DNA of 64,000 nt from a virus (taxonomy: Duplodnaviria; Caudoviricetes): IMG/VR virus record IMGVR_UViG_3300028591_000108, positions 1 through 64,000 of that record. One strand, written 5' to 3'. Positions 34,483-53,391 of this stretch are shown here, one piece after another; positions within the stretch are counted from its first letter, which is position 1, and every line of letters begins with the position of its first letter. The translations under genes and the position numbers were made by a program. Below the pieces are notes generated by a model. The model worked only from the letters and a program-made list of their open reading frames with translations. It had not been told where the DNA came from and made no database searches.

Positions 34483-34660
34483 ATAGGAGGGGGCAGCAGC
34501 CCCTCTTTTTTTTATTGCTTCTGTTAGCCATAGCTAACTACTTTAGCAAGCTAAAGATGTCTAATCTGGTTACTTCCGTACTTTAGCGCACTAAAGCCAT
34601 ACCAGATACGACAATGTACGATCTGGTATTTTTTAGATGTATTACATCTAATTGTGAGGA

Positions 34661-34689
34661 TTGACACACTTTGTGTTTTATGGTATAAT
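34661..34689 (+). promoter_or_regulatory. Consensus sigmaA promoter (representative of the cassette promoters)
   Basis: TTGACA-17 bp-TATAAT. Equivalent TTGACW/TTGCNN boxes start 9 bp after almost every palindrome. Confidence 0.9.
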
Positions 34690-34717
34690 GTAGAAAATGG
34701 TAAAGGGGGTTTTACTC

Positions 34718-34900
34718 ATGTGGGTTATTGGCGCGGGCATTATGGTAGGTGGGCTGTTAGCTATGCCATTAGTAGGCATTATCCCAGGGCTGGCTATTAT
34801 AGCAGCTGGAGCTGCATTAGCTGAGCTGGCAAACTATGCAGCTGAGCAAGCTGAAAGACGTAAGAAAGCTCCAACCGAATACCCAAGCTACAAGTACTAA
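34718..34900 (+). CDS. Small membrane protein
   Basis: AAAGGGGG RBS, two hydrophobic stretches. Confidence 0.65.
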   Translation: MWVIGAGIMVGGLLAMPLVGIIPGLAIIAAGAALAELANYAAEQAERRKKAPTEYPSYKY

Positions 34901-35008
34901 GCGCTTCGGCGCTTATCTTTTTTTAGATGTAATACATCTAAAAAGATGTGTTGACAAAAGAGGGTTCTTATATTATACTTATACCATCAAATGAAGGAGG
35001 TCACCACC

Positions 35009-35221
35009 ATGAAGTACTTACTGATGAGCGAATATGAGACAATGAAGGTTTATGAACTGGACAACGTGATTTACAAGAAAATCGAGTACAAGTTTGTCAA
35101 GCTGACAGGTAGCGAGCTGATAGCACAAAAGCTGATGCTCAAGTTTGGCTCTCTCACTGTTCAACAGTTGAGCTGTAATTCTCAAGTCAATATCTTTGAT
35201 TGTTTTGAGATTCTCGGATAA
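35009..35221 (+). CDS. Cassette hypothetical protein
   Basis: AAGGAGG RBS, stop inside a hairpin. Confidence 0.7.
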   Translation: MKYLLMSEYETMKVYELDNVIYKKIEYKFVKLTGSELIAQKLMLKFGSLTVQQLSCNSQVNIFDCFEILG

Positions 35222-35354
35222 CCCGAGAATCTTTTCTTTATGGGTTTAGATGTAATACATCTAAAATCAGGGTTTGACAGATATGATATTCTATGATATA
35301 CTTATACCATCAAAGAGGGAAGGAAACCCACCAAACCAGAAAGGAAGGAAAAAC

Positions 35355-35492
35355 ATGAAGACCGTAGATATTATGAAGTGGGGCAAGGGATATTATGTGA
35401 CCATGCGCATTGGATGCAATGTCCAGCGTGAGTGGTGCAAGACAAAGAAGGCCGCCGAAACTCTCATGAAAAAGTGGCAGAAAGGGGAGTGA
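35355..35492 (+). CDS. Cassette small basic protein (45 aa)
   Basis: AAAGGAAGG RBS, TGA in the terminator loop. Confidence 0.7.
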   Translation: MKTVDIMKWGKGYYVTMRIGCNVQREWCKTKKAAETLMKKWQKGE

Positions 35493-35617
35493 TCCCCTTT
35501 CTTTTATTATACCAGTTTAGATGTAATACATCTAAATATATAGATTGACATATATAGGCATATAATGTATACTACACTTGTCCGAAGGGACAATACAGAA
35601 AGAAAGAGGTAAGTACC

Positions 35618-35986
35618 ATGAAAAACAGCACTCTGATTAAACTCGTTACCGTCACTTGCGCTTGTATCCTTGCGCTCTTTGCGTGCTTTCCTGCGGAAGC
35701 CGAGCGAGCAGCCGCACAGGAAAAAGCCGAACTTGATCATGGCGAGATGTATCCAAAACTTACAGTAGTAATTGAATCAATCAAGATGGATGATCTATGG
35801 CTTATCTCGTGCCGTGACAGAGAAGGCAATGTGTGGACTTTTTGGGATGATGAAGATACTTGGGCCTACGGCGATATAGCCAATCTTCTGATGTGGGATC
35901 TTGAAGAAGAGGAAATTATTGAGGTATATTGGGAAGGATATACAGAGAATGTAGAGTTATTCTTCCAAACTATGGGATGGCGCTAA
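35618..35986 (+). CDS. Cassette protein with N-terminal signal/TM segment
   Basis: GAGGT RBS, hydrophobic N-terminus. Confidence 0.75.
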   Translation: MKNSTLIKLVTVTCACILALFACFPAEAERAAAQEKAELDHGEMYPKLTVVIESIKMDDLWLISCRDREGNVWTFWDDEDTWAYGDIANLLMWDLEEEEIIEVYWEGYTENVELFFQTMGWR

Positions 35987-36103
35987 CGCGCCTTCCTACT
36001 TATTTAGATGTAATACATCTAAAAACAAGCATTGACATATAGATAAAAGTGAGTATAATTATACTTGTCCAAAGGGACAAAGAAAAGAAAGGGGAATTTC
36101 AAA

Positions 36104-50757: not shown

Positions 50758-50868
50758 ACCGCCATTTCATATTTAGATGTTTAACATCTAAATTAAGCGA
50801 TTGACTTTTCCTAAATTTGTGGTATATTATAATTGTTCTGAAGAGAACGGAAAGGAAGGAAAAATATA

Positions 50869-51129
50869 ATGGATATGGAAACAAGAGTCTATACAATCAG
50901 TCTTTATAATTATCATGGCGAAACTTATGAAGAGCGTTACTTTCAGATGAAACACGCGCTCGCCCGCTTCATTGAATTACAAGAAGAGGGCAAAACGCAT
51001 GATGAGTTTAAGTTTGACCAAGATTACTTTAAGTTCTTCGACGCCGATTATAATGAATATTGTACTTATATTGCTTTTACTAATTGCGCTCTCAAAGATT
51101 TATTTGTGGATGAAATGGAGGCAAAATAA
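50869..51129 (+). CDS. Cassette hypothetical protein
   Basis: AAGGAAGG RBS. Confidence 0.7.
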   Translation: MDMETRVYTISLYNYHGETYEERYFQMKHALARFIELQEEGKTHDEFKFDQDYFKFFDADYNEYCTYIAFTNCALKDLFVDEMEAK

Positions 51130-51324
51130 ATGAGTGAGTTTGAAACTATGTGCCGTATGATTACCAAGTTCCCTCCTCGGAATGAATATGGCGAAGACCA
51201 GTATAAAATAAAGAAAATCCGTAAAGGGCATATTATTTATTTTGCCACTGATGATTCTTATTGTTGGGCAAGTTTATATTTCAATTCCGAAGGTAAATTT
51301 ATAGGCTTCTGCTCGCCCGACTGA
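51130..51324 (+). CDS. Small hypothetical protein
   Basis: GGAGG RBS, LYFNSEGKF. Confidence 0.7.
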   Translation: MSEFETMCRMITKFPPRNEYGEDQYKIKKIRKGHIIYFATDDSYCWASLYFNSEGKFIGFCSPD

Positions 51325-51404
51325 AAACAATTAAATGCGCCCTTATGGGCGCATTTTCTCTAAAGAGAATTAGATGTATTACATCTAATAATAAAATGCC
51401 CTGC

Positions 51405-51689
51405 TTACCGCAAGGCATTTTTTACTTTATCCCAAAACGATGGTACTTCAATATAGAAATCAGATACACCAACTTTATAATACGGTATTTTTATACCATT
51501 CTGTTCTTTCAAATACCACAGTTCATCATAGTCAGGATGCGTAGGATACCATTGCGCTTTTCCTACTTCATAATAGATTCCAATAATATTCTCATCGCTA
51601 AGATAACCTTCATACTCTTCTGCTCCAATAATTTCCTCATCAGTCCACGGACAATAGAGAATGATACGCTTTTTCTTAATCTTTTTCAC
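51405..51689 (-). CDS. Hypothetical protein (inverted block)
   Basis: GGAGG RBS, GTG start overlapping the upstream stop. Confidence 0.65.
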   Translation of the reverse strand: MKKIKKKRIILYCPWTDEEIIGAEEYEGYLSDENIIGIYYEVGKAQWYPTHPDYDELWYLKEQNGIKIPYYKVGVSDFYIEVPSFWDKVKNALR

Positions 51690-52051
51690 GTTCCCGACAC
51701 CTCCCTATACGCCATTTTCCAAGCCGCGTGCAATGCTTCATGACTCGTAGGTTGCGGAATATTCCCAGTATAATAAGACAGAAGAGATTTATCTATTTGT
51801 CTATACTTTCTCAAATCATCATCGTATGCGGCAATCAGATTCAAAATACGCTTCTGATAGGTTTCAATCTCTTGAAGTTCTACATTTTTGTCCGGCCCAT
51901 CAGGAAGCATTTCTGCACTTCCTTTACACACAATAATCTTGTGACAATAGTTTCTCATCAATTGCTTATGCTCACACAGATTGTTTAACAGCTCTTTCAT
52001 GTGAATATCTTCACCGCTCCAAATTTCCTGCTCTTTCTTTCTTCCAAACAT
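51686..52051 (-). CDS. Hypothetical protein (inverted block)
   Basis: AAAGGAG RBS, downstream of the leftward promoter at 52082-52109. Confidence 0.7.
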   Translation of the reverse strand: MFGRKKEQEIWSGEDIHMKELLNNLCEHKQLMRNYCHKIIVCKGSAEMLPDGPDKNVELQEIETYQKRILNLIAAYDDDLRKYRQIDKSLLSYYTGNIPQPTSHEALHAAWKMAYREVSGT

Positions 52052-52169
52052 TTCTTTCAACTCCTTTCTGAGTACAGATACATTATAACAGAATATAAAG
52101 AAAAGTCAAGCACCCTCTTTAGATGTATTACATCTAACTTTAATAAGAGGAGCAAAACTCCTCTTCTCC

Positions 52170-52655
52170 TTAATATCCTAAGTCATAGCGCCCGTCTTCA
52201 TAATGTCCATATACCCAGTATTTCTTATACTCCGTATCGAACCAAGAAACATATCCACAATTTTTCAAATCATCCTTAAATTCTTCTTCAGTAAATTCAT
52301 CTCCGTCTGCCCAATACGCACCCTGCCGGAAAACTTTCCAGACCTCTTCCGGTACAAGATTGTGACGACCATAGCCCTTATAATGAGCGATTACGGTTGG
52401 CGCTACGTCTTCATGGTCTTCACAATCATTATCCCAATAATACAGCGCCATTCCCTCATTCATAGAATCTTCGTACTGCTTTACCAGTTCCGCTTCTTCA
52501 TTATCTACAAACTTATATACTTCAAACCGATAAGTCGGATGATTCTTATTAAACCAATCTTCCCAATCATTCACCAGAAACATCGGTTCACGATCAGCAT
52601 CACATTCATACTGGTCACCAAGTTCTACGCACTTTACAATCAGATACTTCGTCAT
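52170..52655 (-). CDS. Acidic hypothetical protein (inverted block)
   Basis: AAAGGAG RBS, ELGDQYECDADR motif. Confidence 0.75.
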   Translation of the reverse strand: MTKYLIVKCVELGDQYECDADREPMFLVNDWEDWFNKNHPTYRFEVYKFVDNEEAELVKQYEDSMNEGMALYYWDNDCEDHEDVAPTVIAHYKGYGRHNLVPEEVWKVFRQGAYWADGDEFTEEEFKDDLKNCGYVSWFDTEYKKYWVYGHYEDGRYDLGY

Positions 52656-52773
52656 TTTATAGCTCCTTTCGGTTTCTCAGTGTTTTCCTTCACTTCATGT
52701 CTGTATTATATCACAAGTATAGAAAAAGTCAAGCAACGCTTTTAGATGTATTACATCTAACTTCTCAAGACCG

Positions 52774-53178
52774 TCAGACAGTCTTGCAGTAGAAACACCA
52801 TTTAATATCAAAAACATATTTCAATTCAAATCCTTCAGTCTCTAATAAATGCCGCATCCCCATATTGTCGCTCCATGGCGTAGCTCCAATATTTCCATGC
52901 GCTATTTTTGCACATTCGTGTAGCGCAAAACGAGCTATACCTTTTCCCTGATTTTTCTTATTACAAATACATAATCTTTTGATAGCGGTATATCCATACT
53001 GTTCCTCTGGCACAAGAGATACTGTAGCCAGCACCTTTTCCCCTTCCGCAACGACGTATAATTTCTCATTACAATAATCTGCTTTTACCAACTCGGGAGT
53101 AATATAAGATAAGTCTTTACAATAAAGAGCTTTCACAACCTTTATCAAGTCGGTGCGAGTTGCCTGTCTAAATTCCAT
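52774..53178 (-). CDS. GNAT-family acetyltransferase (inverted block)
   Basis: MEFRQAT..D, IKRLCI...QGKGIA acetyl-CoA motif, N..MRHLLETEGF. Confidence 0.85.
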   Translation of the reverse strand: MEFRQATRTDLIKVVKALYCKDLSYITPELVKADYCNEKLYVVAEGEKVLATVSLVPEEQYGYTAIKRLCICNKKNQGKGIARFALHECAKIAHGNIGATPWSDNMGMRHLLETEGFELKYVFDIKWCFYCKTV

Positions 53179-53391
53179 TTCTTCATCCCCTCTCGGTTGA
53201 TATCTATATTATACTCGAAAATAGAAAAAAGTCAATGGCCACTTTAGATGTATTACATCTAACTTTTCCTCTTGACAAATCAAATGTTCATGTGCTTCCG
53301 AACATTTCGCCCTAAATCTCTACTAATGTTTATTACTTGACATGTCGGCGCCTTATCCCATAAGCTACATTTCCGCTGTCAAGTACTTGAC

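Follow-up and report, generated by a model that had tools for sequence, protein, structure and literature searches.

The closest described system is the set of PeSL (promoter-early stem-loop) cassettes of T4-type phages, which join a terminator to a strong host-type early promoter (Arbiol et al. 2010, PMC2839356; Comeau et al. 2014, PMC4122927). In those phages, as in the array analyzed here, a plastic region contains small non-essential ORFans with a composite terminator and promoter recurring between them, the exchange points of insertions, deletions, and replacements lie in the repeated element, and exchange is attributed to homology with no dedicated recombinase (PMC2839356, PMC4122927). 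In contrast to the PeSL cassettes, the array belongs to an unrelated phage, a Firmicute-type, TAG-recoded gut phage, and all of its copies lie within one array. It also has an additional invariant 19-bp palindrome that is separate from the terminator stem, has a fixed helical phase relative to the -35 box, and is a precise crossover point. Mini-circles belong to the PeSL side of this comparison. A sequence-only reading of this DNA had listed PeSL among its precedents without recognizing it; the architecture of the array does match PeSL.

Integron attC cassettes are also small, variable, mostly unknown genes divided by a repeated symmetric site. However, the array has no integrase and no attC structure, its cassettes are not promoter-less, and they are transcribed in both orientations. 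The array resembles T4-type PeSL cassettes and not an integron, because searches of five genomes gave no tyrosine or serine recombinase and a separate promoter serves every unit.

Several phage regulators provide parallels for the palindrome itself. Protein p4 of phi29 is a dimer with a novel, non-HTH fold that binds inverted repeats and works through RNA polymerase, activating one promoter and repressing others (PMC3100819). Its four sites (CTTTTT-15 bp-AAAATG) lie upstream of promoters A2c, A2b, and A3 in one switch region (PMC3100819). Both cases involve phages of Gram-positive hosts and inverted repeats upstream of or at the -35 box of sigmaA promoters, but the array has 24-38 identical 8-3-8 sites over 14-22 kb where p4 has 4. 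The late promoters of P2, 186, and P4 have a dyad-symmetric site (TGT-N12-ACA) centered near -55 for an Ogr-family activator, a small zinc-finger phage protein that contacts the alpha subunit at a few late promoters. The array site is likewise dyad-symmetric and centered at about -54/-55, upstream of the -35 box, but it marks about 34 promoters serving small accessory genes. Mycobacteriophage L5 stoperators, P1 C1 operators, and phiC31 conserved inverted repeats each represent one operator dispersed genome-wide in many copies; they are temperate-phage repressor sites and are often asymmetric or inside transcribed regions. Like these, the many copies in the array would let one protein control many transcription units. 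Unlike the array sites, they are not known to have a fixed phase to a -35 box or to serve as cassette joints.

The array was confirmed. In the window (the whole stretch analyzed, 64,000 nucleotides of a 141,913-bp record) there are 34 exact matches to TTAGATGTAWTACATCTAA, compared to 0.00 expected from 100 shuffles. Two further copies, at 49427 (center GTT) and 50773 (center TTA), depart from these in the 3-nt center only, so the total is 36, and the 8-bp arms are perfect in 36/36. The palindrome is 19 bp long with an 8-3-8 layout, consisting of the half-site TTAGATGT on each arm and a free 3-nt center. Copies are 271-1150 bp apart, and no further copy occurs in the entire record outside 34633-53262, which agrees with the 36 copies reported earlier. 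Read with the standard code, the cassette ORFs are complete, and the stop codon of nearly all of them is TAA or TGA. Terminator-like hairpins number 68 versus 14.5 expected, with one ahead of nearly every palindrome, as had been claimed for each unit. From the promoter type and the TAG-free coding we infer that the array is expressed early. The features are as follows; comparisons are with the relative G001 unless noted.

34633..53262, unstranded: whole array, 36 palindromes bounding 35 units, about 55 small ORFs
34633..34651, plus: palindrome 1, -35 TTGACA at 34661 (9 bp)
34923..34941, plus: palindrome 2, -35 at 34951
35246..35264, plus: palindrome 3, -35 at 35274
35517..35535, plus: palindrome 4, -35 at 35545
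36004..36022, plus: palindrome 5, -35 at 36032; exact start of G001 homology
36288..36306, plus: palindrome 6, -35 TTGCAA at 36316
36664..36682, plus: palindrome 7, -35 TTGCAC at 36692; left edge of 2-cassette indel
36966..36984, plus: palindrome 8, -35 at 36994
37256..37274, plus: palindrome 9, -35 TTGCAA at 37284; right edge of 2-cassette indel
37692..37710, plus: palindrome 10, -35 TTGCAT at 37720
37969..37987, plus: palindrome 11, -35 TTGCAT at 37997
38375..38393, plus: palindrome 12, -35 at 38403; left edge of 1-cassette indel
38704..38722, plus: palindrome 13, -35 at 38732; right edge of 1-cassette indel
39064..39082, plus: palindrome 14, -35 at 39092; replacement cargo in G001
39419..39437, plus: palindrome 15, -35 at 39447
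39791..39809, plus: palindrome 16, -35 at 39819
40160..40178, plus: palindrome 17, -35 at 40188
40590..40608, plus: palindrome 18, -35 at 40618
41351..41369, plus: palindrome 19, -35 at 41379
42126..42144, plus: palindrome 20, -35 TTGCTT at 42154
42685..42703, plus: palindrome 21, -35 at 42713
43245..43263, plus: palindrome 22, -35 TTGCAT at 43273; left flank 96% identical, right 9-bp spacer unrelated
43880..43898, plus: palindrome 23, -35 at 43920 (21 bp); promoter displaced by second palindrome
43902..43916, unstranded: second palindrome TGTATACAGTATACA, between palindrome 23 and its promoter; other copy at 54592-54606
44431..44449, plus: palindrome 24, -35 at 44459
45303..45321, plus: palindrome 25, -35 TTGCAT at 45331
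46453..46471, plus: palindrome 26, -35 at 46481
47062..47080, plus: palindrome 27, -35 at 47090
47909..47927, plus: palindrome 28, -35 TTGCGC at 47937
48798..48816, plus: palindrome 29, -35 TTGCGT at 48826
49427..49445, plus: palindrome 30, center GTT, -35 at 49455
50013..50031, plus: palindrome 31, -35 at 50041
50773..50791, plus: palindrome 32, center TTA, -35 at 50801
51370..51388, unstranded: palindrome 33, no promoter, convergent terminators around; same point in G001, G002, and contig 3300028888_000133
52119..52137, minus: palindrome 34, minus-strand promoter, -35 at 52109 (9 bp)
52742..52760, minus: palindrome 35, minus-strand promoter, -35 at 52732 (9 bp)
53244..53262, unstranded: palindrome 36, leftward -35 at 53235 (8 bp), rightward TTGACA at 53272 (9 bp)

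The palindrome is probably an operator bound by a factor with two-fold symmetry that makes contact with RNA polymerase, and also a preferred point of homology-driven crossover. A TTGnnn hexamer begins exactly 9 bp right of the palindrome in 31 copies and is followed by 16-18 bp and TAnnnT. Palindromes 52119 and 52742 have a minus-strand promoter 9 bp to the left, and 53244 has two promoters, one 8 bp leftward and one 9 bp rightward. The earlier count of 34 copies at 9 bp is thus reproduced (31 right, 2 left, and 53244), and the 9 spacer bases are variable, as also stated then. The exceptions are 43880, with the -35 box at 21 bp, and 51370, which lacks a promoter. Among 287 palindromes on 17 contigs, the -35 offset is 8-10 bp in 216 (193 at 9 bp, 9 at 8 bp, and 14 at 10 bp), and displaced promoters cluster 19-21, 28-33, and 39-42 bp away. 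The offsets are best described by a period of 10-10.5 bp, shifted in phase by 0.1 bp relative to 9, and the observed phase concentration was reached by 0/20,000 random sets. In four genomes the gene at 44002 has its promoter 21, 20, 31, and 30 bp from the palindrome, farther out by one or two turns of the helix.

This geometry is consistent with a sequence-specific DNA-binding factor that would occupy the palindrome, roughly in the -63 to -45 region of host sigmaA-type promoters and invariably on one face of the helix, and contact RNA polymerase. In this way about 34 promoters in an array of small, standard-code genes would be controlled together. A dimeric factor at about -45 to -63 coupling these promoters had been proposed before, and it is supported by the 9-bp spacing, the helical phasing, the independent variation of the arms, and conservation in twelve relatives. 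The factor may activate, in a class-I-like manner, or repress. Array promoters are mostly near consensus, often with an extended -10, suggesting that an activator should be unnecessary; a repressor could hold polymerase at strong promoters in the manner of phi29 p4. Alternatively, the alpha C-terminal domains of host RNA polymerase might read the site directly as an unusual UP-type element, with no extra factor. The palindrome covers the UP-element position, is AT-rich, and has a fixed spacing to the -35 box, and no binder was found among the proteins examined. However, its G and C positions are invariant, its T or C type is genome-specific, and it has dyad symmetry. It also works from 20, 30, and 40 bp, where separate A-tracts often adjoin the -35 box, and the same genome is rich in strong promoters that lack it: about 35 palindrome-free consensus promoters at 53-140 kb and four within the array. 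The palindrome marks only one promoter class, and direct reading by polymerase is very unlikely.

Twelve relatives have one palindrome array apiece. The five whole T-type relatives each have a single array with 24-38 copies. Across five genomes there are 145 perfect copies versus about 12 in the arrays whose arms have one or two mismatches. A sister lineage (C-type) has arrays built on TTAGACGT arms, and the two types are never mixed in one genome. The A and G versions of the type-defining position occur as single sites only, without arrays, and the bacterial genomes searched had only chance-level singletons. In G006, arm position 3 is A or G independently in each arm (12 G/G, 2 A/A, and 11 hybrids), which fits half-site reading and not base pairing. 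A hairpin is highly improbable, whether as a DNA cruciform or as an RNA stem-loop through which read-through transcripts would be processed, antiterminated, or insulated. It would explain the perfect dyad symmetry, the location directly after terminators, the T-to-C switch, which is symmetric across the arms and would preserve pairing, and two symmetric double arm variants, in G001 and G005. However, the 11 hybrids would break or weaken a pair, the stem would have only 8 AT-rich base pairs, the site is upstream of its own unit's transcription start, and a helical phase relative to the -35 box is characteristic of double-stranded DNA. A point against the operator reading comes from two C-type genomes, G018 and G020, where most palindromes are outside 8-10 bp of a promoter; in G020 a third half-site follows them.

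Comparison of relatives shows cassette gain, loss, and replacement at the palindrome. Homology between the window and G001 switches exactly inside it at indels and replacements, as the sequence-only reading had suggested cassette changes might. Flanks are continuous across 41/178 informative palindromes compared to 85/185 cassette midpoints in 13 genome pairs, and HSP ends are within 5 bp of a palindrome in 8/25 cases versus 5% expected. Shuffling had also been proposed; gain, loss, and replacement with palindrome breakpoints are seen directly, but cassette order is largely collinear among relatives. Recombination at the palindrome would be homology-driven and PeSL-like, and through it related phages would gain, lose, or replace cassettes that run from terminator to terminator. 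No other identical stretch shared by otherwise unrelated units is as long as the palindrome, which would make it the preferred crossover point.

An integron-like system, in which a dedicated site-specific recombinase excises and inserts cassettes as circles at the palindrome, is hardly credible. Breakpoints exactly within the 19-bp site, the promoter-less copy kept at a convergence point, and one sequence type for all copies in a genome would fit it. However, no tyrosine (PF00589) or serine (PF00239) recombinase was detected in five genomes, four of them complete, with searches that were positive in control genomes, and a RuvC-like match in relatives falls short of the Pfam threshold. The earlier remark that no recombinase was visible therefore extends to the whole genome and four complete relatives. 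A promoter and a terminator are present in each cassette, the site is short and perfectly palindromic where attC-type repeats are imperfect, and recombination would make no use of the strict 9-bp, helically phased link to the -35 box. With the collinear order, these results leave the integron-like label given previously unsupported. A selfish or neutral junction repeat, spread and homogenized by recombination like REP or MITE elements and having no regulatory role, is quite unlikely. It agrees with the crossovers, the uniformity of copies within a genome, and the promoter-less copies. Conservation of copy 51370 in relatives also counts against the operator reading as a full account, since promoter control cannot be the sole reason for copies to persist. 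However, a neutral repeat would not hold to one distance and one helical phase relative to promoters in both orientations over 17 contigs, nor would it remain confined to a single array per genome.

The following proteins are encoded by the cassettes and their surroundings.

43512..43832, plus: winged-helix-like paralogue 1, 106 aa; own palindrome-less promoter at 43430
44002..44406, plus: 134-aa cassette protein; family in all five whole genomes, 1218 metagenome homologues
45438..46427, plus: 329-aa protein, phrog_20187 / exonuclease-like; paralogue of 48015-48767, family in all five genomes
47302..47622, plus: winged-helix-like paralogue 2, HTH_IclR E 2.7e-4; own promoter at 47223
48015..48767, plus: 250-aa paralogue in the exonuclease-like family
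49051..49377, plus: winged-helix-like paralogue 3; own promoter at 48965
52774..53178, minus: GNAT acetyltransferase cassette
56756..56968, plus: 70-aa Xre-like protein; four in-frame TAG codons, 3.5 kb past the array

Only the 44002 and 45438 families are common to all five whole genomes. The 44002 protein has no known family or fold and no recognizable DNA-binding fold, and its sequences are not separated by palindrome site type. None of the HTH candidates named earlier could be linked to the palindrome, and the 43512/47302/49051 family is absent from G003 and G004, which have the same palindrome. The one winged-helix protein present in every genome holding its region does not vary with site type, which counts against it as the binder; the sites of G003 are T-type, yet the recognition helix of its protein is the version found in C-type phages. 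The Xre-like gene at 56756 keeps its position in G001, G005, and G006, and its product is a candidate late-made regulator.

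The palindrome marks one class of promoter. TTAGATGTAWTACATCTAA (8-bp arms around a 3-nt centre) has 34 exact occurrences compared with 0.00 expected in shuffled sequence, and 36 copies once mismatches are allowed; the additional copies, 49427 and 50773 (copies are named by start coordinate), deviate in the 3-nt centre only. The array extends from 34633 to 53262 with a copy-to-copy spacing of 271-1150 bp, and no further copies were found outside it in the full 141,913-bp IMG/VR record, which is estimated to be 78% complete; the ~22% still lacking matches 32-80 kb of the relative G001. 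Almost all copies have a GC hairpin and T-run upstream and a -35/-10 pair downstream, and there are 68 terminator-like sites, while 14.5 were expected. In 31 copies the right-hand TTGnnn is at exactly 9 bp and a TAnnnT box comes 16-18 bp later, frequently with an extended -10. The flank listing and promoter scan revealed several other arrangements:

52119 and 52742: palindromes with a minus-strand promoter, the mirror image of the 9-bp arrangement
53244: palindrome with two promoters, leftward at 8 bp and rightward at 9 bp
43880: palindrome with its promoter at 21 bp
51370: promoter-less palindrome between convergent terminators

The sequence-only reading had described this layout accurately, including the count of 34 promoter-linked copies, as judged by flank listings, promoter scans and the terminator count. 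No palindrome is present at ~35 further consensus sigmaA-type promoters (53-140 kb) or at four within the array; the palindrome is therefore the mark of one promoter class and not of every host-type promoter. The leaders downstream of the -10 boxes (35560-50860) belong to a few classes: some have a 5' stem-loop, for example CTTGTCCGAAGGGACAAG, others have a stem with a AAGGAAAA loop and then AAACCAGAAAGG, and others have a strong ribosome-binding site directly. The same leader hairpin is found at the palindrome-less promoter 53944. These leader classes are probably mRNA-stabilising or translation elements.

Related phages have arrays of two site types. The exact motif is found in ~15 other IMG/VR contigs, and the layout is likewise terminator, palindrome, 9 bp and promoter. 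Five whole relatives have one array apiece, with 24-38 copies within 14-22 kb:

G001: 188 kb, single array
G003: 116 kb, single array, terminal repeats, standard code
G004: 174 kb, single array
G005: 190 kb, single array
G006: 177 kb, single array

A sister lineage of ~50 viral contigs (IMG/VR stretches L189-L268 and genomes G018-G025) has arrays with the arms TTAGACGT/ACGTCTAA, and a fetched stretch contains as many as 23 copies. These sites are designated C-type, and those with the arms of the window T-type. Each genome has one site type only (TTAGATGT or TTAGACGT), and the A and G versions of the type-defining position, used as a control, gave isolated single sites only. G003 has T-type sites, yet it is a C-clade phage genome-wide, with 87 of 97 proteins closer to C-type genomes. 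Site type therefore does not track phage phylogeny, and immunity-like specificity groups or the use of host factors could underlie the two operator types. Metagenomes could be searched for this phage family with the invariant site as a sequence tag. In the sister genome G020 a third half-site, TTAGACGTCA, lies 14-19 bp after each palindrome, and the promoter is further off. Another sequence, TTAGAAGTNNNACTTCTAA, has one copy in each of 90 stretches (L327-L406), mostly small environmental viral contigs, and may be a conserved single site of an unrelated phage group.

The constraint on the arms, their independent variation and the fixed distance to the promoter point to a protein that would read two half-sites on double-stranded DNA and act with RNA polymerase. 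In five genomes there are 145 perfect copies, compared with ~12 array copies whose arms differ at one or two positions. Arm position 3 in G006 is A or G independently in each arm (12 G/G, 2 A/A and 11 hybrids), as expected for half-site recognition and not for a base-paired hairpin, and this choice fits a putative symmetric dimer reading each half-site independently. Seventeen contigs contribute 287 copies; of these, 193 have the -35 box at 9 bp, 9 have it at 8 bp and 14 at 10 bp. Another 24 promoters are displaced and form clusters at 19-21, 28-33 and 39-42 bp, with varied intervening sequence. The period that fits best, 10-10.5 bp, agrees in phase with the 9-bp spacing. In 20,000 random sets the observed phase concentration was never reached, and the result was the same once homologous duplicates were removed. 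The gene for cassette protein 44002 (134 aa; 44002-44406, plus strand) has its promoter at 21, 20, 31 and 30 bp in four genomes. Such apparent helical-face dependence, as read from promoter positions, is characteristic of a factor that binds upstream and would touch polymerase. The geometry of the site resembles class-I activation. It does not fix the sign of regulation, because the majority of array promoters are near consensus and because the same kind of contact by phi29 p4 represses strong promoters and activates weak ones (PMC3100819). The array offers a testable regulon of ~34 promoters with one shared putative operator in a widespread uncultured ruminant-gut phage family. Some members of this family are TAG-recoded, and for these the gene-expression programme is otherwise deduced from codon use only.

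TAG is a sense codon in the genome studied here (1-32649 of the window and the record as a whole), where read-through yields, among other frames, ones of 5516 and 3087 codons:

1625-18175, minus strand: 5516-aa read-through frame, TAG read as sense
74193-83456: 3087-aa read-through frame, TAG read as sense
105503-105588 and 117034-117116 of the full record: two tRNAs with anticodon CUA, within a cluster of 18 tRNAs at 105-117 kb

The cassette ORFs are complete in the standard code, which fits translation ahead of a code switch, and their stop is almost always TAA or TGA. The cargo comprises ~55 ORFs of 35-329 aa, mostly without Pfam or PHROG function, and its content differs between relatives. 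The promoters and ribosome-binding sites are of Gram-positive type. The source is a sheep-gut metagenome, and partial relatives are found in goat and bovine gut runs; the search of public runs turned up none of RNA. Megablast with the array and with 1-25 kb as queries gave no DNA match to INPHARED phages. Near the large tRNA cluster are genes for a Thg1-like tRNA-His guanylyltransferase, an AAA_33 kinase, a metallophosphoesterase and an ATP-dependent ligase (61907-62683 in the window; 120322-121417 and 135263-136396 in the full record), together a possible tRNA repair set.

The search for the binding factor covered both bacterial and phage genes. A host regulon was rejected on the chance-level matches to the arms: 185,579 species genomes contain exact arms at 118 loci, approximately the number expected by chance, so exact sites are not enriched in bacteria. 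A conserved Neobacillus locus proved to be an unrelated leader hairpin. Multi-copy matches are confined to small contigs of metagenome-assembled genomes (MAGs) from Acutalibacteraceae, Oscillospiraceae and Bacillota, and these look like binned phage fragments. The contigs with palindrome arrays in Oscillospirales bins are L043 and L103 (Acutalibacteraceae), L074 (Oscillospiraceae), L105 and L143, and two Acutalibacteraceae bins contain fragments of both T-type and C-type arrays. The binning of array contigs is a weak hint that the uncultured host is among the Oscillospirales.

Several phage proteins were considered as the binder. The three winged-helix-like paralogues inside the array (43512, 47302 and 49051) are absent from G003 and G004, including by HMM search. 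HTH_3 and sigma region 4 proteins are present in only some genomes, and no GntR domain was found in the genomes examined. A MarR/IclR-like winged-helix gene of the replication module is present in every genome holding that region, including eight C-type genomes; its product was rejected, as G003, with T-type sites, has the recognition helix of the C-type phages. Protein 44002 is found in all five genomes and has 1218 metagenome homologues. Its confident structure model shows one helix followed by a beta-hairpin and a basic helix of 60 residues; the protein was rejected because no fold match was found and its tree does not separate T-type from C-type phages. Screening the G003 proteins for discordance turned up a single T-type-only family outside the array, and this is a membrane or coiled-coil protein. 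It has 213 aa (90199-90840 in the full record; L184:6199-6837), among them a membrane segment at the N terminus, a coiled-coil stretch and Cys pairs that are conserved. It is found in T-type genomes and G003 and in none of four C-type genomes, and it has 7041 metagenome homologues without annotation. The remaining T-type-only genes lack a DNA-binding domain. Since no candidate fits and bacterial genomes are not enriched in sites, the factor may come from the host, or it may be a phage protein that evolves fast. The invariant site could be used as bait for it.

Another gene lies just past the array in G000 (the record studied here), G001, G005 and G006, and was not detected outside these four genomes:

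56756-56968: Xre-like gene of 70 codons with four in-frame TAGs

The palindromes could be the target of this protein, a regulator translatable only after the code switch that would shut off the cassette genes, although we consider this improbable. Synthesis of the Xre-like protein would have to wait for expression of the phage amber-suppressor tRNAs; the protein would then dock on all ~34 sites and silence the standard-code cassette genes. If true, its docking would hard-wire the genetic-code switch to the transcription programme.

Comparison of related arrays shows that cassettes are gained, lost and replaced at the palindrome. The window and G001 are collinear, with 72-91% identity and whole-cassette indels and replacements. 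At the indels (for example junction pairs 38375/38704 and 36664/37256) the relative matches one window palindrome on the left side and a different one on the right side, and the switch is inside the 19 bp. At twelve more junctions the flank is near-identical up to the palindrome on one side and unrelated on the other. In 13 genome pairs, 41 of 178 informative palindromes have continuous flanks, versus 85 of 185 cassette midpoints, and alignment ends are enriched approximately six-fold within 5 bp of a palindrome. Certain exchanges are located in the promoter or leader instead. Cassette order is otherwise mostly conserved, with a few moves. The proposal that cassette changes break at the palindrome is thus borne out for indels and replacements, with order largely kept. 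PeSL cassettes can form mini-circles by recombination between adjacent elements. In Logan contigs of public runs, many palindromes have short-sided joints or branch points (such as 41331 to 47089, and the loose ends 50773/50791); the short sides span 21-36 letters at 90% likeness, too weak for these joints to be counted as circles or variants. An inverted three-cassette block was considered as a recent recombination footprint; its convergent layout is kept in G001, G002 and 3300028888_000133, so it is old architecture and not a recent inversion.

The exchange behavior matches that described for the PeSL elements of T4-type phages (PMC2839356, PMC4122927). As in PeSL elements, a terminator stem-loop is followed directly by a strong host-type promoter, the elements flank small ORFs, mostly without assigned function, with plastic content among relatives, and the exchange points of indels and replacements are inside the element. 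Unlike the T4-type myovirus setting of PeSL, the phage here is TAG-recoded, comes from sheep gut, has Gram-positive-type signals and has no INPHARED match. The array works like PeSL elements, and it is not a PeSL member by descent. The idea of an integron-like junction, also raised in the sequence-only reading, fails on the integrase, the site structure and the cassettes. Neither the tyrosine recombinase PF00589, and hence no IntI beside the array, nor the serine recombinase PF00239 was found in G000, G001, G003, G004 and G005; controls for PF00589 were detected. Integron attC sites are imperfect inverted repeats that fold as single strands, while the site here is a 19-bp perfect palindrome with 8-bp arms. 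Integron cassettes are promoter-less and share the common Pc promoter, while every unit here has its own promoter and terminator. Overall the array appears to work like PeSL-like cassettes combined with a putative phi29-p4-like or class-I-like upstream operator, and not like an integron. This would extend the PeSL idea of regulatory junctions that double as recombination joints beyond T4-type phages, and add to it a separate operator as the exact crossover point. The 19-mer does not occur in the searched literature, where 8-mer matches are unrelated, and a preprint on recoded phages nowhere mentions a promoter or palindrome. The searched literature likewise has no such architecture in recoded gut phages.

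Other repeats are found within and beside the array. A second palindrome, TGTATACAGTATACA, occurs twice (43902-43916 and 54592-54606), and both copies lie immediately ahead of a -35 box. One of them adjoins the promoter at 54610, which is oriented antisense to a ResIII helicase gene containing TAG (54796-56151, minus strand). The rightward -35 box of palindrome 36 is followed directly by an inverted repeat, AAATGTTC-N10-GAACATTT (53273-53300), which is kept in G001, G002 and 3300028888_000133 and may be a separate operator or attenuator. Right after the array, 53330-53700 is GC-rich, non-coding and packed with AAGCTGGAA / CAAGCTGG repeats, and this stretch looks like replication-origin iterons.
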